From NCBI GenBank assembly GCA_016210925.1, contig JACQTF010000031.1, positions 1 to 51,026 of the forward strand: 51,026 bases of DNA. The letters are read 5' to 3'. The stretch's first letter is position 1. The number at the start of each line of letters is the position of its first letter. The position numbers and the translations under genes are program-made. The DNA comes from Acidobacteriota bacterium (GTDB lineage Bacteria > Acidobacteriota > UBA6911 > JACQTF01). Below the pieces are notes generated by a model. The model was not told the DNA's origin. It saw only the letters and a list, made by a program, of their open reading frames with translations, and made no database searches. Shown here piece by piece: positions 660 to 47,264 of the stretch.

Positions 660-746
660 TCAAACCAGCCGCTGGGACTTGCCCAGGTGCCGGCGGACGT
701 AGTTGAGCATGCCCCCCACCTCCAGAACCTGTTGCAGAAACTCCGG
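660..746 (-). pseudogene. Possible C-terminal remnant of an isopropylmalate dehydratase/homoaconitase small subunit
   Basis: PEFLQQVLEVGGMLNYVRRHL resembles the terminal 'PxFxxxILxxGGLxxYV' helix of LeuD/HacB-type subunits. Confidence 0.45.
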
Positions 747-759
747 TGAGCTCGGGGGC

Positions 760-788
760 TTGACAGCTGCTCGGGGCTTTCTTACGAT
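760..788 (+). promoter_or_regulatory. Sigma-70 promoter, probably leaderless
   Basis: TTGACA(760-765)-N17-TACGAT(783-788); ATG at 796 lies 7 nt further on, with no SD. Confidence 0.7.
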
Positions 789-795
789 GGGAACG

Positions 796-1185
796 ATGAG
801 TACCGCGCAAAAGCGGCCCCGATGGTCCGCCGTTGCGGCCGTTGTGCTGGCGTGGGCCTTCCCGGGCTCCGGACACCTTTTCTTGAAGCGCTGGGGACGC
901 GCCTTGATCTTCTGCGCGTCGGTGGTGGCCCTCTTCGCCCTGGGATTGCAGATGCAGGGCGAATTGTTCTCCGCGAATCGCGCTGATTTTTTCACGCTGC
1001 TGAAATTTGTCGCCGACGTCAGCGTGGGACTTCCCTATTTCGTGGCCCGGCAGGCAGGCTTCGGCGAGGGAAATATCCGGTCCATGACCTACGAGTACGG
1101 CAATACCTTCCTCTACGTCGCCGGCCTGCTCAACCTGCTCATCATCCTGGACGCGTACGATATTGCCGCAGGGAAGAAGGCATAA
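796..1185 (+). CDS. Conserved membrane protein (DUF6677-like)
   Basis: LAWAFPGSGHLFL and YEYGNTFLYVAGLLNLLIILDAYDIA motifs, hydrophobic segments; start chosen from the promoter position. Confidence 0.75.
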   Translation: MSTAQKRPRWSAVAAVVLAWAFPGSGHLFLKRWGRALIFCASVVALFALGLQMQGELFSANRADFFTLLKFVADVSVGLPYFVARQAGFGEGNIRSMTYEYGNTFLYVAGLLNLLIILDAYDIAAGKKA

Positions 1186-1190
1186 TGAAT

Positions 1191-1252
1191 CCCGTTCCTC
1201 GGTTTGCAACTGAAATGAAAATATCCCGAGATCAAGCAAACCGAGGAACGGG
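1191..1252. mobile_element. 62-bp MITE-like IS scar
   Basis: Perfect 17-bp TIR CCCGTTCCTCGGTTTGC (1191-1207 / 1236-1252) flanked by the direct repeat ATGAAT (1185-1190, 1253-1258). Confidence 0.8.
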
Positions 1253-1423
1253 ATGAATCACATCAGCGCGCTGGTGGTCTTTTCCATTGCCGTCGCCGCC
1301 GTCTTCGCGTGCATCGCGAAAGAGACACCCCGGGAGCAGCTTCGGTATTTTCTCTTCCTCCTGGGTGCGCTTGTGGTCTCCTCGCTGGTGGCAGCCTGGA
1401 TCATGTATCCATTTCCTTTTTGA
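1253..1423 (+). CDS. Small 56-aa two-helix membrane protein (absent from the ORF track)
   Basis: MNHISALVVFSIAVAAVFACIAKETPREQLRYFLFLLGALVVSSLVAAWIMYPFPF*; in operon orientation with GAGGA upstream. Confidence 0.8.
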   Translation: MNHISALVVFSIAVAAVFACIAKETPREQLRYFLFLLGALVVSSLVAAWIMYPFPF

Positions 1424-1520
1424 CCTCAATTCGCCCCTGATGTAACGTAGACTTCGTGCCACGGAACCGCGCCCACGGTGTGCTTCACTTCATCGCGAGA
1501 CGTCACGGACGGACCGAGGT

Positions 1521-1907
1521 TTGAGCGCCCTCCTCGCCTGGCTCTGGTACTGGTTTCCCCCTTTGGTTTACATGGCCTTGATTTTCTACCTGTCATCCCT
1601 GTCGGAACCTCCCGTCCCGGGCAAGATTCCCGACTGGGTCCTGCATGCCGCAGAGTACGCGATGCTGGGGGCGCTGGCCTTTCGCGCTATGAACCGCGGC
1701 TTCCTGAATCGATCCAGCATCGCTGTCTCGCTCCTGGCCCTCATCTGGTCTGCCGGGTACGGAGTTACCGATGAAATTCATCAGCTTTACGTGCCCGAGA
1801 GGGAATTTTCCTGGCAGGATCTGGCCGTGGACTTTGCCGGATCTCTCCTTGCAGTGGCTCTCTTGCATTATGTAACATCTTGGAAAAGCGAAAGAAATCC
1901 ACCATGA
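1521..1907 (+). CDS. VanZ family membrane protein
   Basis: IFYLSS, DWVLHAAEYAML and DEIHQLYVPEREFSWQDLAVD motifs. Confidence 0.9.
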   Translation: MSALLAWLWYWFPPLVYMALIFYLSSLSEPPVPGKIPDWVLHAAEYAMLGALAFRAMNRGFLNRSSIAVSLLALIWSAGYGVTDEIHQLYVPEREFSWQDLAVDFAGSLLAVALLHYVTSWKSERNPP

Positions 1908-1998
1908 CCCCGCACCTACCCACGCTATGTAGACGGCAAGCCAACAAAGACTTAGGTACGGGATCAGCACCAGTCATCGGAAGGAGGTAGGTGCGGGG
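1908..1998. mobile_element. 91-bp MITE-like IS scar
   Basis: Perfect 13-bp TIR CCCCGCACCTACC (1908-1920 / 1986-1998) flanked by TGA (1905-1907, 1999-2001). Confidence 0.75.
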
Positions 1999-3059
1999 TG
2001 AAGCGCATCGCCATCATTCCAGGGGACGGAATCGGCATCGATGTGACTCGGGAGGCGGTGAAGGTCCTCCGGACCGTGGGGGAGATCCTGGGCCGGCCCT
2101 TTGAGCTGTTGGAGTTCGACTACGGGGCGGACAAATACTTGCGGGAGGGCATCACCCTCCCGGCGGGTGCCCTGGACGCGTTTCGCAACGAGTTTGACGC
2201 CATCTTCCTTGGCGCCCTGGGCGACCCCCGGGTGCCGGACATGAAGCATGCCTCGGACATCCTGTTCGGGCTCCGTTTCGGCCTGGACCTGTATGTGAAC
2301 CACCGCCCCGTCAAGCTCCTGGATGCCGCCCTGACGCCCCTCAAGGACCGCACCGAAGCCGATGTGAACTTTGTGATTTTTCGGGAGAACACCGAGGGTC
2401 TCTACTCGGGCGTGGGGGGCTTCTTCAAGAAGGACAGCCCCGATGAGGTGGCTACCCAGTTGGATATCAACACCCGCAAGGGGGTCGAACGGATCATCGA
2501 GTACGCGTTCCAGTACGCCGCTGGCCACGGATTGACCCGGGTCACCATGAGCGACAAGAGCAATGCCCTGCGGTACGGGCACGATCTGTGGCAGAGGGTC
2601 TTTCAAGTGGTACGGGCCCGCTATCCCCAGATCGAGGCAAACCACTGGTACATCGATGCCCTCACCATGCAGATGGTGAAGAACCCGGGACAATTTCAGG
2701 TGATCGTGACGTGCAACATGTTCGGCGACATCATCACGGACCTGGGAGCCCAGCTTCAGGGGGGCATGGGTATGGCCGCTTCGGGAAATATCCATCCTCA
2801 GGGGACCTCGATGTTTGAACCCGTCCACGGTTCAGCGCCCAAATATGCAGGCAAGAACGTGGCGAATCCCTTGGGAGCCATCCTGGCCGTCCAGATGATG
2901 CTGGAGCACCTGGGCCTGGCCGAGCCTGCCCGTTGGGTGGAAGAGGCCGTGGTGCAGGCCATCCGTCAAAAGAAGACGACAAGGGATGTCGGGGGCACCC
3001 TGGGGACCCGCCAGGTGGGGGATGCGGTCTGCGAGCTGATCTACTCGGTCGCCTCCTGA
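1998..3059 (+). CDS. leuB: 3-isopropylmalate dehydrogenase (isocitrate/isopropylmalate/tartrate dehydrogenase family)
   Basis: IPGDGIG, FRENTEGLY, NMFGDIITDLGA and FEPVHGSAP motifs; AAGGAGG SD. Confidence 0.85.
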   Translation: MKRIAIIPGDGIGIDVTREAVKVLRTVGEILGRPFELLEFDYGADKYLREGITLPAGALDAFRNEFDAIFLGALGDPRVPDMKHASDILFGLRFGLDLYVNHRPVKLLDAALTPLKDRTEADVNFVIFRENTEGLYSGVGGFFKKDSPDEVATQLDINTRKGVERIIEYAFQYAAGHGLTRVTMSDKSNALRYGHDLWQRVFQVVRARYPQIEANHWYIDALTMQMVKNPGQFQVIVTCNMFGDIITDLGAQLQGGMGMAASGNIHPQGTSMFEPVHGSAPKYAGKNVANPLGAILAVQMMLEHLGLAEPARWVEEAVVQAIRQKKTTRDVGGTLGTRQVGDAVCELIYSVAS

Positions 3060-3065
3060 CACTCC

Positions 3066-3155
3066 GTCATTGGTCAATCGGTCAATCGTCAAAGTGGTCA
3101 AACGTCAACGGGGTTTTCCGATTGACGAATGACGATTGACCGTTGACGATTGACT
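3066..3155. repeat. Palindromic tandem heptamer repeat (GTCAATC arm / GATTGAC arm)
   Basis: About six GTCAAYN-like units followed by about five inverted ATTGACG-like units between leuB and pfkB. Confidence 0.85.
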
Positions 3156-3162
3156 CATTCCA

Positions 3163-4128
3163 ATGCTGAATGCCGCTGGATTCTTCCATACAAGGTTCCC
3201 CGATCATAAGCCCTTTGACGTGGTGGGAATGGGTCTGAACGCAGTGGATCACCTCTGCGTCGTTCCTCGCTACCCGGAGTTCAACACCAAGACCAAGATC
3301 CTGGAATACCAACGTCTGCCGGGAGGCCAGGTGGCCACCGCCCTGGTGACTTGCGCGCGCATGGGGTTGAAGGCCAAATACCTGGGAAAAGTGGGGTCCG
3401 ACGAGCTGGGACGCGTCAGCCTGGAGAGCATCGCGCGGGAGGGGATCGACGTATCCGCCGTGATCCAGGAGCCCGATTCGCTGAACCAGTTTGCGTTCAT
3501 CATCATTGACCGGGAAAGCGGCGAGCGGACCATTCTGTGGGACCGGGACTCGAAGCTTATGTACCGGCCCGGGGAATTGAACAAGGAGGAGGTGTGCGCC
3601 GGCAGAATTCTCCACCTGGATGGCCACGATCTCCCCGCCAGCATCCAGGCGGCCCGCTGGGCGCGGGAAGCGGGAATCCCGACCGTCGCTGACCTGGACC
3701 GGGTCCAGGAGGGGATGGAGGAGCTGTTGGGACTGGTGGACTTCCTGATCTCTTCCGCAAACTTTCCACCCCAATTGACCGGCGAGAAGCGCCTGGAGAA
3801 GGCGTTGCGGGCGGAACGCCAGTTCTGCCCTGGATTTATCGCCGCGACGATGGGCGAAGAAGGCGCCATGGCCCTCGTGGGAGATGATATAATTTATTTT
3901 CCGGCTTTCCGGGTCCGGACCGTGGATACCACGGGAGCCGGCGATGCCTTTCATGGCGCTTTTATTTATGGGCTGCTTCGGGGATGGCCCCTAAAGCGCA
4001 CCATGGTTTTCTCCCATGCCACGGCGGCCCTCAAGTGCATGAAGGTGGGAGCCCGGACCGGGATTCCGGGCCTCCCGCAAGTGGAGCTCTTTCTGAGGGA
4101 GCAAGGGGACACCTGGAAGGAGCCATAG
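3163..4128 (+). CDS. PfkB family carbohydrate kinase
   Basis: GGQVATAL and DTTGAGDAFHG signatures. Confidence 0.92.
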   Translation: MLNAAGFFHTRFPDHKPFDVVGMGLNAVDHLCVVPRYPEFNTKTKILEYQRLPGGQVATALVTCARMGLKAKYLGKVGSDELGRVSLESIAREGIDVSAVIQEPDSLNQFAFIIIDRESGERTILWDRDSKLMYRPGELNKEEVCAGRILHLDGHDLPASIQAARWAREAGIPTVADLDRVQEGMEELLGLVDFLISSANFPPQLTGEKRLEKALRAERQFCPGFIAATMGEEGAMALVGDDIIYFPAFRVRTVDTTGAGDAFHGAFIYGLLRGWPLKRTMVFSHATAALKCMKVGARTGIPGLPQVELFLREQGDTWKEP

Positions 4129-4157
4129 GCGGTCCAGCCACCCATCCTCAAGACAAG

Positions 4158-5543
4158 ATGACCGATACCCCGCGGAGCCTGTTCATCGACGAAGAAAATA
4201 TGGCGCTGGCCACAGACCTCTACCAGCTCACCATGGCCGCCGCCTATTTTCAGAACAGCTGCACCCAGCGGGCTACCTTTGAGATGTTCGTGCGCAAGCT
4301 GCCGGAGCATCGTTCGTTCCTGGTGTCTGCGGGTCAAGAGCAGGTGCTTCACCACCTGCAGCATCTCCGGTTCAGCGGCCCGGTGGTGGATTTTCTGCGC
4401 CGCCATCCCGTGTTCAAGTCGGTTTCACCCGAGTTCTTCGATTTTCTTCTGGAATTTCGTTTTCAGGGCGACGTCTGGGCCATGCCCGAGGGGACCCTGG
4501 TCTTCCCCACGGAACCCATCCTTCGGGTTACAGCTCCCATCATCCAGTCGCAGATCATTGAGACTTACCTCCTGAGCCACATGAATTTCCAGACGAGCAT
4601 CGCCTCCAAGGCGGCCCGGCTATGCCTGGCCGCCGAGGGCAGGGCGGTGGTCGAGTTCGGCTCCCGGAGGGCCCACGGGCCCCAGGCGGCGCTCTTAGCA
4701 GCCCGGGCGGCCTACGTCGGCGGTTGCGCGGGCACCTCCAACGTGCTGGCTGGATACCTGCTGGGGATCCCCATCTACGGCACCATTGCCCATTCGTACG
4801 TCATGTCCTTCGACAGCGAGACGGAGGCCTTTCGCCGTTACTTCAACGTGTTTCCGGAAAACTCGATTTTGCTCGTGGACACGTACGACACCCTGGAAGG
4901 GGTGCAGAAGGCCCTGGACATGAAGGTCAATTTCCGCGGCGTTCGGCTCGACAGTGGCGATCTCCTGGGCTTGAGCCGGAGGAGCCGCCAGTTGCTGGAC
5001 CGGGCCGGCCTGAGAGACGCACTCATCGTAGGCAGCGGCGACCTGAATGAGGAGATCATCTTTGAGTTGACCTCGCACGGAGCGCCCATCGACGTGTTTG
5101 GCGTGGGAACGGAACTGGCCACCTCCAAGGATGCTCCCGCCCTGGGCGGGATCTACAAGCTCGTGGAGGAGCAGAAGGACAGCCAGGCAGTCCCGAAGGC
5201 CAAGTTCAGCAGCGACAAGGCCACGTACGGGGGTGCCAAGCAGGCCTTCCGGGTCAGCGATGAGAGAGGGAAGTTTGTTCGAGATATCTTGGCCCTGGCC
5301 GACGAACAGGCCCCGCGGGGAGGGCAACCCCTCCTGGAGCAGTGCATGGAGGGGGGCGTCCCGGTGGGGAATCGGGGGGACGTCCATGCCACGCGCCGGT
5401 ACGTGGCCGATCAGCTCGGGCGCCTGCCCGGGGCGTACCAGCGCCTCTACAACGCCGAGACCTATCCGGTTCAGAAGAGCCCAAAGCTGGAAGAGGTGAG
5501 GCGGGAGCTGGAAGAGCAATACAGAGGTCAGCCGCGGTCATGA
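4158..5543 (+). CDS. pncB: Nicotinate phosphoribosyltransferase
   Basis: ALATDLYQLTM, EFGSRRAHG, GTIAHSY, LVDTYDT and VRLDSGD motifs. Confidence 0.95.
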   Translation: MTDTPRSLFIDEENMALATDLYQLTMAAAYFQNSCTQRATFEMFVRKLPEHRSFLVSAGQEQVLHHLQHLRFSGPVVDFLRRHPVFKSVSPEFFDFLLEFRFQGDVWAMPEGTLVFPTEPILRVTAPIIQSQIIETYLLSHMNFQTSIASKAARLCLAAEGRAVVEFGSRRAHGPQAALLAARAAYVGGCAGTSNVLAGYLLGIPIYGTIAHSYVMSFDSETEAFRRYFNVFPENSILLVDTYDTLEGVQKALDMKVNFRGVRLDSGDLLGLSRRSRQLLDRAGLRDALIVGSGDLNEEIIFELTSHGAPIDVFGVGTELATSKDAPALGGIYKLVEEQKDSQAVPKAKFSSDKATYGGAKQAFRVSDERGKFVRDILALADEQAPRGGQPLLEQCMEGGVPVGNRGDVHATRRYVADQLGRLPGAYQRLYNAETYPVQKSPKLEEVRRELEEQYRGQPRS

Positions 5544-6139
5544 CACACGGTATGATTTTCTGGGACGTGGATACCCAGTTCGATTTCATGGAACCCGCTG
5601 GCTCCCTCTTCGTAAAGGGAGCACCCGCCATCGTGGAGAACCTGCGGGCGCTCTTTCGGTACGCTCGCGACCACCGGATTCCCATCATTTCCTCCGCCGA
5701 TACCCACGTGGAGGATGATCCGGAGTTTCGAGCATTTCCCCGTCATTGCGTCAAGGGCTCCCCGGGGCAGCAGCGGTTGCCGGTGACCCTGGCGGAAGAC
5801 CACGTGGTGGTGGAGAACAAAAAAGAGGGGCCGGAACTGGAGAAAAAGATCCAGGGCCGCCCCCAGGTGATTGTGGAGAAGCAAGCCATTGATGTGTTCA
5901 CCAACCCGAACATAGATGAAGTGCTGAAGCACTATCCCAAGGACGTGGCCCTGTTCGGTGTGGCGACCGAGCATTGTGTTCGCGCCACCGCTTTGGGCCT
6001 GCGGCGCCGTGGATTTCGGGTCCGGCTGGTGACCGATGCCATTGCAGCCGTGGATGAGCAGCAGGGAAGGAACAGCATCCGAGAGATGGAAGAAGCGGGC
6101 TGCGAGCTGGTCACCACCCGCGAGGTCACGTCGCGGTAA
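5540..6139 (+). CDS. pncA: Nicotinamidase / isochorismatase-family cysteine hydrolase
   Basis: DVDTQFDF, FPRHCV and GVATEHCV motifs; ATGA overlap with pncB. Confidence 0.85.
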   Translation: MTHGMIFWDVDTQFDFMEPAGSLFVKGAPAIVENLRALFRYARDHRIPIISSADTHVEDDPEFRAFPRHCVKGSPGQQRLPVTLAEDHVVVENKKEGPELEKKIQGRPQVIVEKQAIDVFTNPNIDEVLKHYPKDVALFGVATEHCVRATALGLRRRGFRVRLVTDAIAAVDEQQGRNSIREMEEAGCELVTTREVTSR

Positions 6140-6150
6140 TCAGGAGCATC

Positions 6151-7332
6151 GTGCTGGTGCCGTTCCAACCTTTTTCTGCCACGGGTGCGCCACATGACCC
6201 CTGGAAGGGAGACATGACAGGGACGCAGGTGACTTGGGACAAAGTGGTTGGAACGGCACTGGGTCTGTACATCCATATCCCGTTCTGCGAGAAGAAGTGC
6301 TCCTATTGCGACTTTCGCACGGGCAGTTATGAACCGGCCGTGGCGGGCCGTTACGCCCGCGCCCTCGTCCGGGAAGTGGAGACGTTTCGCGCGCGGGGCC
6401 GGCACTCCGCTGACACCGTTTTCTTCGGCGGCGGTACGCCCAGCCTCCTGATCCCTGCCCAACTGGAATCCATCCTCGCGGCTCTCCATGAGGCTTTTGA
6501 AATCTCTGCCGACGTCGAGATCACCCTGGAGGCGAACCCGGGGACCCTGGAGCCGGAAAAGGCACGAGCGTTTCGCTCGCTGGGCGTCAACCGAATCAGC
6601 CTGGGGGTCCAGTCTTTCGACGACGCCGAGCTTCGGCGTTTGCGCCGGACCCACGACTCCGGCGCTGCCCGGCGGGCGGTCTCTTCTCTGCGGCGCGTTG
6701 GCTTCCAGAATTTCAACCTGGACCTCATCCTGGGAGTCCCTGGGCAGACGGACCAGAGCTGGCGCAACAACTTAAAGCAGGTCGCTGAACTGGCGGCCCC
6801 CCATCTCTCCGTGTACATGTTGGAGCTGCATGAGGGCACCCACCTCTTCTCGGATTACCTCCGGGGCACGGCGAATCTGCCCGCGGAAGACCAGGTGGCC
6901 GACTGGTATCTTGAGACGGTGGATTTCCTGACCGGCCTGGGCTACAACCATTATGAGATCTCCAACTTCGCCCTGCCGGGACGGGAGTGCCGTCACAACC
7001 TGAAGTACTGGAATAACGAGGAATACATCGGCTTCGGTCTCAGCAGCCATTCCCACTGGCGCGGTCTTCGCTTTTGGAATGAGCCTGCCCTGTTGCGCTA
7101 CCTGGAAAGGGTGAAAGCAACGGGCGAGGCCGTGGCGGGCAGCGAAGTCGCCCAGCCTTCCGAGCGCATCTTCCTGGGCCTCCGCAAGACAGAGGGCGTC
7201 CCCCTCCGGGAGGTCGAGGGCAGAGTGGAGCGCTTTTTCGAAGCAGGATTGTTGGAGCGCGTTGGAGACCGCGTCCGGCTGACCCGGCGCGGAATCCTGG
7301 TTTCGAACGAAATCTTCGCCCAGCTGGTTTAG
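6151..7332 (+). CDS. hemW: Radical SAM heme chaperone HemW, carrying a 35-codon in-frame insertion at its N-terminus (alternative start ATG 6214)
   Basis: [29 protein letters not shown] and HNLKYW motifs. Confidence 0.92.
6158..6258. mobile_element. 101-bp MITE-like IS scar inside the 5' end of hemW
   Basis: Perfect 13-bp TIR TGCCGTTCCAACC (6158-6170 / 6246-6258) flanked by CTGG (6154-6157, 6259-6262). Confidence 0.8.
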
Positions 7333-14433: not shown

Positions 14434-14486
14434 ATCTAGAATCCAGAATCTAAAATTTCATTCGATGGACCATTGACGATTGACGA
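14433..14486. repeat. Two abutting heptamer tandem arrays (AATCYAR-type, then ATTGACG-type)
   Basis: AATCTAG AATCCAG AATCTAA, then ...ggacc ATTGACG ATTGACG, between mtnP and pfkB. Confidence 0.65.
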
Positions 14487-20589: not shown

Positions 20590-20865
20590 TGCTCCGGCCT
20601 TGATTATCAGATCAAGCACCACCTGTTTCCCGGATTCAGCCATGTGTACTATCCACGGATGAGCCCCCTGGTCGAGGAGTTCTGCAGGACGCACGGATAT
20701 CCCTACCGCAGACTTTGCTGGGGAGAAGCGGTCGTGGAAGCTTTCCTCGCGTTCCGCACTCCGAAAAGGGTTGAGCAGCGACTGGCCGCCTTGAGGCTTC
20801 GGTGGGACCCCGATCCGTCGATGAGCCAGCCGTGTCCCCATTTCGGGAAGATTCCATTAGGCTGA
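20590..20865 (+). pseudogene. C-terminal fragment of a membrane fatty acid desaturase
   Basis: GLDYQIKHHLFPGFSHVYYPRMSPLVEEFCRTHGYPY is the third His box (QIEHHLFP). An in-frame stop lies at 20536 and the first two His boxes are missing. Confidence 0.85.
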
Positions 20866-21081
20866 GGACCTTGGCTGGTCTCGGCGCAAGTCTTGGGGAG
20901 CGACCCTCACCTTCCGAGTGATCTTGTTCCTGGCGAACGAAGCGAGCCAGGGGCGCAGCCCATTGGCAGAAACGTTATCCTGAGTCACCAACGGCCACGC
21001 CCTATCGACGGATCGGGGTGGGACGGCGCGGGCACGCTGCGCGGTGAAACGGTGGCCGAATCCGGGCAGGTCTGATCGTCG

Positions 21082-41661: not shown

Positions 41662-43143
41662 GTGGATCGAAAGACGTGGATCATCGTGGTGGCCGTGGAT
41701 CTGGCCATGCTGCTGGGGGCCGTGGATGCCACCATCGTTGGCACCGCCATGCCCACCGTGATCTCCAGCTTGGGTGGGATGAGTTTGTACAGCTGGGTCT
41801 TCTCGGTGTACGTTCTGGCCTCGACGACCGCGATCCCCATCTTCGGGAAGTTGTCGGACCTGTATGGACGCCGTGCCCTCTTTTTGATCGGGATCGGCAC
41901 GTTCGTAGGGGCATCGGCCTTGTGCGGGACGGCCACCTCCATGACCCAGCTCATCGCATTCCGGGCTCTGCAGGGCATCGGGGCGGGCGGTATCTTCTCC
42001 AACGCCATTGCCATCTTCGGCGTGATCTTTCCGCCCCACCAGCGTGGCAAGATGCAGGCGTTGATCTCAGCGGTATGGGGATTGGCCAGCATCGTGGGCC
42101 CCGTGACCGGCGGTTTCATCGTGGATCACTGGGGCTGGCGGTGGACCTTTTACATCAGTGTCCCGATCGGCCTGGCCGCCGCCCTGATGGTGATGGCGGC
42201 CCTTCCCGAGAGTCGCGGTGCGGCCCGGGCCGGTTTGGATTTCGGTGGCATCCTGGCCTTGTGCACGGCGGTCATCACGCTGCTGTTCGGCTTCCTCTAC
42301 TCCGGGGAGGGGCACTCGCTTCTGTCCGTGCCCGTGCTGGGACTTTTTGCAGCTTCGGGGCTGGCGTCGGCGTGGTTCGTGCGGCAGGAAAAGCGAAGCA
42401 AGGAGCCCATCCTGCCTTCGGAATTTTTCTCCAACCGGCTCTTCTCCGTTTTCGCAGGACTCAGTCTGCTCTCCGGTGCCGCTATGTTCGGGGCGATCGT
42501 TTTCGTTCCCCTCTTCGTGCAGGGGGTCCTGGGCGGCTCGGCCACCACCGCAGGTTCCGTCCTGACACCCATGAGCCTGGGATGGGTCTCCGGAAGCCTG
42601 GTGGGAGGGAGGCTGGTGTACCGGGCGGGGCCGCGCCGCATGGTGCTGGCTGGGATGGTGCTCATGTCGGCGGCCTACCTCTTGCTGGCCCAGGTGGGTG
42701 CCGGCGCGTCCTACTTTGCGGTGACCTTCCACGTGTTCGTCCTGGGTGCGGGCATGGGAGTGGTCACGGTGAGCATCGTGGTGGGGATTCAGAACAACGT
42801 GGGCATCCACAGCATGGGCTCCGCCAGCTCAGTGCCGGTGCTGTTTCGCAACGTGGGCGCCAGCATCGGAATGGCCTTGATGGGCAGCCTGTTCACTGGA
42901 AGGATGATGCAACGGGGGTCGGGAAATCCTGAGCCCGGGCTGCGGTTCCCGGACCCGAAGCTCCTGCTGGACCCGGTTCAGCGGGGCCTGATGGAGCCGG
43001 AGGTGTTGTGGTCCATGCGCGTCACCATGGCCAGCGCGTTGGAGGCGGCATTCTGGCTAGGCTTTGCCCTGGCGCTGGTGGGCGTCGTGCTCAGCCTCTG
43101 GATCCCGCCGCAGAGAACCGAAACCCCAAAACCTGAAACCTGA
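41662..43143 (+). CDS. MFS multidrug-type transporter (DHA2, 14-TM)
   Basis: DATIVGTAMP, GKLSDLYGRR and FRALQGIGAG motifs. Confidence 0.92.
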   Translation: MDRKTWIIVVAVDLAMLLGAVDATIVGTAMPTVISSLGGMSLYSWVFSVYVLASTTAIPIFGKLSDLYGRRALFLIGIGTFVGASALCGTATSMTQLIAFRALQGIGAGGIFSNAIAIFGVIFPPHQRGKMQALISAVWGLASIVGPVTGGFIVDHWGWRWTFYISVPIGLAAALMVMAALPESRGAARAGLDFGGILALCTAVITLLFGFLYSGEGHSLLSVPVLGLFAASGLASAWFVRQEKRSKEPILPSEFFSNRLFSVFAGLSLLSGAAMFGAIVFVPLFVQGVLGGSATTAGSVLTPMSLGWVSGSLVGGRLVYRAGPRRMVLAGMVLMSAAYLLLAQVGAGASYFAVTFHVFVLGAGMGVVTVSIVVGIQNNVGIHSMGSASSVPVLFRNVGASIGMALMGSLFTGRMMQRGSGNPEPGLRFPDPKLLLDPVQRGLMEPEVLWSMRVTMASALEAAFWLGFALALVGVVLSLWIPPQRTETPKPET

Positions 43144-43206
43144 AACCTAAAACTCGAAAGCCATCCGATCGTTTTAGGTTTCAGGTTTTAAAGTTTTAGG
43201 TTTTTC
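43115..43206. repeat. Palindromic tandem heptamer repeat (AAACCTG / CAGGTTT arms)
   Basis: The arms overlap the stop codons of both convergent genes. Confidence 0.8.
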
Positions 43207-47200: not shown

Positions 47201-47264
47201 GTCATTCGTCAATCGTCCAACGTCAATCGCTCGACGATTGACCAATGACCATTGACGATTGACC
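47201..47264. repeat. Palindromic tandem heptamer repeat (GTCAATC / GATTGAC), same family as at 3066
   Basis: gtcattc gtcaatc gtccaac gtcaatc ... attgacc aatgacc attgacg attgacc between dnaE and accA. Confidence 0.85.

Follow-up and report, generated by a model that had tools for sequence, protein, structure and literature searches.

The locus described here lies in a 51,026-nt contig of an Acidobacteriota bacterium (JACQTF010000031.1 of assembly GCA_016210925.1), referred to as the window. It is contig C224 of a 240-contig metagenome bin of 3.32 Mb with 61% GC, which is 90% complete. A run of genes on the same strand extends from 703 to about 10,900, and three short elements, E1, E2 and E3, lie on or just after translation starts within this run. 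[quoted passage not shown] Copies of the family to which E2 belongs occupy stop and start codons much more frequently than expected, and at such junctions the last base of the element and the duplicated target together form a start codon. The features of the locus are the following.

703..1185, + strand: gene for a DUF6677 membrane protein (Pfam PF20382, E 5.7e-34)
1185..1256, + strand: frame of 23 amino acids (aa) from the old ATG across E1, ending at a TGA that overlaps ATG 1253 (ATGA)
1190..1253, no strand assigned: E1, an orphan MITE-like element of 64 bp, flanked by the two copies of a TGAA duplication at 1186-1189 and 1254-1257 (E3-type borders)
1253..1423, + strand: conserved 56-aa membrane open reading frame (ORF; MNHISAL...YPFPF), with homologous ORFs in syntenic loci
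1521..1907, + strand: VanZ-like gene (Pfam PF04892)
1904..1990, + strand: frame of 28 aa that opens at the old ATG (of ATGA), crosses E2 and ends at a TAG inside the right arm
1908..1998, no strand assigned: E2, member of the putative MITE family with ends CCCCGCACCTAC, 91 bp, flanked by the two copies of a TGA duplication at 1905-1907 and 1999-2001
1998..3059, + strand: gene of the isocitrate/isopropylmalate dehydrogenase family (Pfam PF00180, residues 4-344 aligned to profile positions 2-348)
3163-4128, same strand as the run: PfkB kinase gene
4158-5543, same strand as the run: nicotinate phosphoribosyltransferase gene
5552-6139, same strand as the run: isochorismatase-family gene
6151..7332, + strand: radical-SAM HemW/HemN-like gene (Pfam Radical_SAM from residue 40), followed by more genes
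6158..6258, no strand assigned: E3, member of the putative MITE family with ends TGCCGTTCCAAC, 101 bp, flanked by the two copies of a CTGG duplication at 6154-6157 and 6259-6262

The borders, arms and flanking duplications of all three elements could be read in the sequence, in agreement with the first-pass annotation, which had placed three elements with terminal inverted repeats (TIRs) and target site duplications (TSDs) on translation starts; the perfect arms described there apply in E3 to the outer ~15 nt only. E1 has arms of 19 nt that form a perfect inverted repeat (1189-1207 / 1236-1254). Its borders can alternatively be drawn at 1191-1252, giving an element of 62 bp with ATGAAT duplicated. 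The arms of E2 are a perfect repeat of 14 nt (1907-1920 / 1986-1999), and those of E3 (6157-6181 / 6235-6259) extend over 25 nt with 84% complementarity. Folded as RNA, E1, E2 and E3 reach -36.4 kcal/mol (z -8.2), -39.6 kcal/mol (z -3.0) and -53.1 kcal/mol (z -2.6), respectively.

Each element is closely interlocked with the coding sequences around it. Ancestrally, the next gene began with an ATG that overlapped the TAA stop of the DUF6677 gene (1183-1185) as TAATG. At the other end of E1, the last A of the element and the duplicated TG make up ATG 1253, and the right arm of E1 provides a GAGGA, resembling a Shine-Dalgarno (SD) sequence, 5 nt 5' of this ATG. In E2, the TGA stop of the VanZ-like gene (1905-1907) is itself the left copy of the duplication, and the GTG start of the dehydrogenase gene at 1998 consists of the last G of the element and the TG of the duplication. 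GGAGG and AGGTG precede this GTG, the latter at a spacing of 4 nt. E3 together with one duplication adds 105 nt (35 codons), in frame and stop-free, after codon 2 of the hemW-like gene. This gene has its old GTG start at 6151; a second candidate start, the in-frame ATG at 6214, falls within E3, with GGAAGGGAG ahead of it. An SD-like sequence is therefore present in each element, as had been annotated. Removal in silico of the element and one copy of the duplication yielded TAATGAATCAC for E1, CACCATGAAGCGC for E2 and GTGCTGGGTCTGTAC for E3 and so reproduced the predicted junctions TAATG, ATGA and GTG-CTG-GGT-CTG-TAC.

The N-termini predicted for these empty sites agree with homologues of all three window genes. 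The 56-aa ORF, for which no Pfam family match was found, lies directly 3' of the DUF6677 gene in all ten of the syntenic metagenome loci examined, with an ATGA overlap in three of them, and its homologues begin with MKNHFTL or MDHFTAM, resembling MNHISAL in the window. The dehydrogenase orthologue of genome G001 starts with an ATG as MKRIAVIPGDG at the position where the window gene starts as (G)TG-KRIAIIPGDG. For the hemW-like gene, homologues with 3-5 residues before YIHIPFC, such as MIGLYVHIPFC (L013), MKAGIYIHIPFC and MMPGVYIHIPFC (three loci), fit the predicted ancestral N-terminus. In distant metagenome loci, the junction between the VanZ-like and dehydrogenase genes consists of gaps of about 40-640 nt with no ATGA overlap, so that these loci neither confirm nor refute the empty site of E2 at the DNA level.

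The bin is fragmented into its 240 contigs, and some contigs of other sequencing runs break at the E3 arms, as one would expect if the elements were products of chance or of the assembly of the bin. We consider such an origin practically negligible, since E1, E2 and E3 are crossed gap-free by independent contigs from other samples and from another study, and the statistics of arms and duplications, given below, are far beyond chance. All of the aligned contigs carry the elements. In the other study, the contigs holding E1 and E2 gap-free are ~96% identical to the window. None of the 15 contig joints listed, out of 35, coincided with an element border. The window sequence recurs in groundwater metagenomes (13 sequencing runs, all of them DNA, with no RNA run among them). 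Contigs of two runs, X2 and X4, matched both arms of E2 or E3 (window 1920-1986 and 6176-6245) with 31 or 26 other letters in between; they could be other copies of the families or alleles with swapped interiors.

A scan of the genome showed that the ends of E2, CCCCGCACCTAC...GTAGGTGCGGGG, occur in 65 pairs at up to one mismatch and in 79 pairs at up to two. The copies are mostly 56-62 bp or 98-107 bp long. A perfect flanking repeat of at least 3 nt (3-6 nt) borders 50 of the 79 copies, with 17 different words: TGA was found 22 times, TGG five times, TGGA, TGAA and CCAG three times each, in addition to others. That the flanking repeat varies from copy to copy is a mark of cut-and-paste transposition. 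The family comprises subfamilies with common ends and different interiors, and the interior of the window copy is unique among the copies. The ends are far better conserved than the interiors, which is partly due to how the copies were found. The ends of E3, TGCCGTTCCAAC, delimit 36 pairs of about 100 bp (mostly 98-104 bp), about 17 of them with a conserved interior, from which the window copy differs as it does from the other family copies. Duplications are present in 24 of the 36, among them CTAG (9) and CCAG (8).

E1 is a single copy in this genome. Its first nine end bases, TCCCGTTCC, are identical to the ends of E3 variants at C105:2184 and C2:19449, and its 4-bp TGAA duplication comes with E3-type borders. 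The three elements had been described as unrelated. This description had to be abandoned, given these features of E1 and the ends of abundant families that E2 and E3 carry. A further family, E5, with ends CCCCGATCCGTC, has 41 copies, of which one lies in the window (20808-21018); the length of its duplications varies (4-6 bp). Searched de novo, the genome yielded only 61 elements that combine perfect arms of at least 13 nt with a duplication of at least 3 nt, a rarity that places the features of the elements beyond chance; at least 44 belong to the E2, E3 and E5 families, five are periodic hairpins, and E1 is among the few orphans.

With inverted repeats, duplications that vary between copies and a length of 62-101 bp that leaves out a transposase gene, the elements bear the signature of MITEs, as had been recognized from TIRs and TSDs at first pass. 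Dispersal in many copies, a further mark of MITEs, was found for E2 (79) and E3 (36) and not for the single-copy E1. Taken together, E1, E2 and E3 are probably MITEs, that is, non-autonomous DNA transposons, specific to this lineage.

Structured RNA or DNA motifs other than transposons, for instance attenuators, RNA-stability elements or hairpins of the REP type that a tyrosine transposase mobilizes, could in principle look similar if the flanking repeats were incidental. The genome does contain many other hairpin repeats as well as Y1_Tnp genes, and hairpins with the same 16-nt arms occur singly and free of duplications in seven metagenome-assembled genomes (MAGs) of other phyla. We nevertheless judge this explanation very improbable: perfect direct repeats of 3-6 nt that change from copy to copy flank 50 of the 79 E2 copies, the arms themselves are not palindromes, the Y1_Tnp genes do not have these ends at their flanks, and Rfam gave no family match within the window.

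The distribution of the elements is narrow. The patterns of E3 and E1 are absent from all 136 other genomes of the class that were scanned, and that of E2 occurred, among 185,579 species, only as the seven single-copy hairpins just mentioned, with no parent element among these matches. These (L093-L099) stem from MAGs of Verrucomicrobiota, Saccharibacteria, Cloacimonadota, Phycisphaerae and Planctomycetota. All carry the 12-nt E2 ends, the arms extend as CCCCGCACCTACTTTG in five of the seven, none has a target duplication, and two of them have the right flank TAAGGGTGAA in common.

Several transposase genes of the bin were considered as a possible source. A 1,631-bp insertion sequence at C213:138-1768, on a contig of 2.8 kb, has ends CTAGGAGTCTGTCGGA and a DDE_Tnp_1 ORF of 469 aa; it was rejected as parent, its ends being unrelated to those of the MITEs. 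An IS630-like DDE_3 gene on C185 has no end motifs of the E families within 1.5 kb, and the three Y1_Tnp matches are not flanked by such ends either. Two of the Y1_Tnp genes are IS200/RAYT-like and encode about 176-180 aa (C26:7136-7663 and C82:1264-1803). About 530 bp from the former, at C26:6608, lies a small hairpin, TCCCGTTCCACG...GGAAACGGGA, which begins like the ends of E1 and E3. PF13359, PF13586, PF13612 and PF00665 had no match in the genome, and solo ends of the E families had no distant partner there.

The most informative result concerned the placement of the E2 copies relative to genes. Gene starts were taken from a custom start-trimming gene caller, and the nulls from censuses of the target words outside coding sequence. 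The duplicated TGA was a called stop codon in 25 of the 30 TGA-flanked copies (null 0.109, p 7e-20). The census counted 1,571 TGA at stops and 12,881 between genes; with 25 copies at stops and five elsewhere, stop-codon TGA was hit in about 40-fold excess over intergenic TGA. On the downstream side, the next called start was the GTG made of the last G and the duplicated TG in 20 of the 79 copies. This corresponds to 29% of the non-coding copies (20/70), against a null of 0.07 of TG-R sites (p 4e-8). A stop or a start was occupied by 34 of these 70 copies (null 0.11, p 9e-15), and both the stop and the next start by 12 of the 26 stop-side copies, compared to 11.8% of TGA stops genome-wide (p 1.4e-5). 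The enrichment at start codons that had been proposed as a check thus holds strongly for the E2 family, at stops and at starts.

The neighborhood of the copies pointed in the same direction. Same-strand junctions accounted for 55 of 65 intergenic E2 copies versus 21 of 38 for E5 (Fisher p 0.002), a family that is distributed more evenly over the intergenic types. After in-silico excision, the tandem gaps holding E2 measured up to 20 nt in 26 of 55 cases, with a 4-nt overlap in 10; among all tandem gaps, 29.5% are that short. For E3, 14 copies are flanked by CTAG, and in 11 of them its TAG was a stop codon (null 0.32, p 5e-4). Of the 19 downstream products compared with Pfam, 12 have positions 1-7 of a profile aligned inside their first seven residues, for example for RmlD_sub_bind (1-279 to 1-285), Formyl_trans_N (3-182 to 1-181), NTPase_1 (2-163 to 1-166) and HTH_1 (3-62 to 1-60). 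Homologues and Pfam profiles place the ancestral starts at the element junctions. A start codon also survives at 15 of 20 left junctions (ATG 9, GTG 2, TTG 4).

These figures raise the question of whether E2, and perhaps E1, might be aimed at, or positively selected at, stop/start overlaps, where the element would serve as a coupling or tuning hairpin that conceals the ribosome site of the next gene until a ribosome comes in from upstream. The ~40-fold excess at stop TGA and the start-codon placement of 29% versus 7% would be expected from elements adapted in this way, as would the better preservation of the ends, the orientation with the gene and the layout of the right arm described below. 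Yet 36 of the 79 copies lie elsewhere between genes and nine inside genes, and the target shows no extended motif beyond TG-R, save a mild excess of A at -1 and +3. The conservation of the ends stems in part from the search procedure, and the traversal by open frames is at background. Targeting could, moreover, be mimicked if the elements preferred GC-rich, coding-like flanks and lethal in-gene hits were lost. On balance we find such adaptation unlikely. Among the gene-internal copies, four lie in frame inside called genes (C36:6552, C190:1006, C230:15582 and C235:4296) and measure 63, 108, 63 and 66 nt including the duplication.

Short E2 copies possess one purine-rich inner arm (GAAAAGAAGG, adjoining the right end). 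This arm is downstream in 27 of 36 same-strand copies (p 0.004), and the count becomes 33 of 42 once copies inside genes are added; the short copies inside genes are all oriented as the gene (6/6). With symmetric ends, insertion in both orientations would be expected, and the bias therefore suggests a filter that depends on the direction of the gene. Where GC skew and gene direction conflict, the orientation follows the gene in seven of eight cases, although contig skew is a poor proxy for replication and is confounded with the coding strand.

The first-pass annotation had also noted an open reading frame through each of the three elements. The 23-aa and 28-aa frames and the 35-codon insertion are indeed present in the window; across the family, the feature did not rise above chance level. 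From the old starts at 15 E2 junction copies, 10 frames reach the right arm, where six end at the TAG of the arm, two end at the TGA of the duplication and two fuse in frame. Open frames make up 0.60-0.65 of E2 copies away from starts, which gives p 0.31 for the comparison. The right arm carries stops in two frames (TAG and TGA) and the start in the third, and this is a fixed property of the arm sequence.

From these observations the following scheme can be proposed. The E2 and E3 families were probably moved by DDE transposases that make 3-5 bp TG-R (E2) and 4-bp CTAG-like (E3) duplications. Stop codons (TGA, and the TAG of CTAG) and the TG of start codons would coincide with their preferred targets, and an insertion at a gene border would be nearly harmless. 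The upstream stop is retained in the left copy of the duplication, and a start in the old frame is re-formed from the duplicated TG and the final base of the element (G in E2, A in E1). An SD-like motif is placed at a working distance by the right arm (AGGTG at 4 nt in E2, GAGGA at 5 nt in E1). In the mRNA, the paired arms are predicted to bury this motif together with the start codon; a ribosome ending at the upstream stop, or entering from the old ATG, could open the stem, and the downstream gene would stay coupled. The hemW-like protein would either carry 35 extra residues after Met-Leu or start at ATG 6214 within E3. DDE-type transposition, initiation at the rebuilt starts, the melting of the hairpin and the coupling of the genes are inferences. 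The enrichment itself may come from the choice of target, from the survival of harmless insertions or from positive selection.

A number of points weigh against this explanation. No empty site was seen; the nearest genomes belong to the same class only (best orthologue 69% aa), and the best metagenome relative reaches 75% aa. No transposase with matching ends was found in the genome, an absence that is not established given a bin that is 90% complete and repeats that often remain unassembled. The gene caller rewards SD-like motifs and could favor the junction GTG, and seven of the 19 downstream products have no Pfam support of the above kind for a start at the junction. A few of the E2 pairs, kept among the 79, are probably false (C112:5269, C65:2961 and C21:17492, with poor ends and no duplication). 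Five of the 15 old-start frames stop early inside the element; read-through can thus not be a general rule. Finally, survival alone hardly explains the ~40-fold excess at stop TGA, so that some targeting or positive selection may have contributed. With these points taken into account, MITEs whose insertion is tolerated at gene borders and whose ends rebuild starts are still, in our opinion, the likely explanation as a whole.

A bolder version can be put forward tentatively, and we would not expect it to be right: E2, with E1 as a parallel, could be a transposon lineage shaped for gene borders, with a transposase that prefers stop/start junctions and ends that act as a portable translational-coupling cassette. 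The parts of this cassette would be AGGTG, a 4-nt spacer, the terminal G that joins the duplicated TG, and the stops in the other two frames, and its hairpin would make the downstream gene depend on the upstream ribosome. If so, the elements could rewire expression ratios within operons.

Transposon insertions in tight operons are usually regarded as polar and harmful. The E2 family suggests a simple route around polarity, where the duplication keeps the stop and the end of the element re-forms the start with the duplication. If the rebuilt starts are used, this would explain how small mobile elements colonize the densest parts of a compact genome. It would also supply an annotation rule for true starts beside such repeats, and about 20 natural hairpin-gated junctions for the study of translational coupling.

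Concerning the gene row as a whole, the single operon that had been assumed is plausible, given the common strand of the genes and promoter- and terminator-like matches that are no commoner than in shuffled sequence. The gap between the dehydrogenase and PfkB genes is filled by a hairpin of another kind (3060-3160; RNA fold -44.2 kcal/mol, z -4.7), which is built from an inverted array of GTCAATC-like heptamers. Such arrays form hairpins also at 47201-47263 and 14463-14484 of the window, and related sequences are dispersed across many contigs of the genome. Inverted arrays of AAACCTG heptamers were found at 43121-43203. This is the commonest inverted-repeat type of the genome, with more than 150 candidates with perfect repeats, mostly without target duplication. 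In the metagenome relative L015 (1640-1700), a run of ATGACAA heptamers lies immediately 5' of the hemW-like gene, and intergenic heptamer repeats may hence be common in this group.

Among known systems, IS5-like and PIF/Harbinger-like MITEs come close in build. Features in common are the small size (57-130 bp), the lack of a transposase gene, TIRs, many copies and subfamilies that share ends. The duplications are alike as well, with 4-bp CTAG-like words for E3 and the 3-bp TGA for E2 (22 of 50); we take 3-bp T-N-A and 4-bp CTAG duplications to be typical of Harbinger/IS5 relatives. Unlike in those MITEs, the E2 target is TG-R and not a strict T-N-A (TGG occurs besides TGA), the length of the duplication is variable (3-5 bp), and no parent insertion sequence was found in the genome. 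REP, BIME and REPIN sequences, associated with RAYT, are GC-rich intergenic hairpins, often located just after stops, in which each unit is palindromic and which are not known to duplicate a target. The present elements differ from them by their variable duplications, by arms that are not palindromic and by Y1_Tnp genes that are not flanked by the ends.

The proposal of an undescribed class of elements did not withstand this comparison, since the elements are ordinary in build and repeats at gene ends that supply a stop are in print. Of the 58 coding sequences that BOX elements of pneumococcus overlap, 36 are overlapped at their extreme 3' end, and the repeat encodes the stop (PMC3049150). In Coxiella, QMITE1/2 overlap genes by 1-50 bp, some of them supplying only the stop (PMC5896051). 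Both resemble the present case as small repeats at the 3' ends of genes that supply or abut the stop. They differ in that the stop comes from the repeat, whereas here it is the duplicated target; a rebuilding of the next start together with a ribosome site is not described in the passages on them. Rickettsia palindromic elements are mobile and inserted in frame inside protein genes, according to a 2024 review (PMC10969869), as are E3 in the hemW-like gene and the four in-frame E2 copies. They are about 150 bp long and mostly gene-internal, whereas the in-gene copies are a minority here (9/79) and gene borders are the main location. [quoted passage not shown]

A search of the main text of openly accessible papers retrieved no MITE that rebuilds a start codon from its end and the duplication, nor a family of which one copy in four lies on a start, and a term search of the 2024 review (PMC10969869) gave no mention of start codon, stop codon, Shine-Dalgarno or ribosome binding. 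In Neisseria, genes may be directly preceded by the dispersed REP2 repeat, which brings along both a start codon and a ribosome-binding site, as described by Delihas 2011 (PMC3184786). According to that review, REP2 has no TIRs and also supplies a promoter (PMC3184786), whereas in E2 and E1 the start codon needs the duplicated target. This rebuilding of a start codon by the end of a MITE and its duplication may be the new point of the present elements, of which an earlier description may exist.

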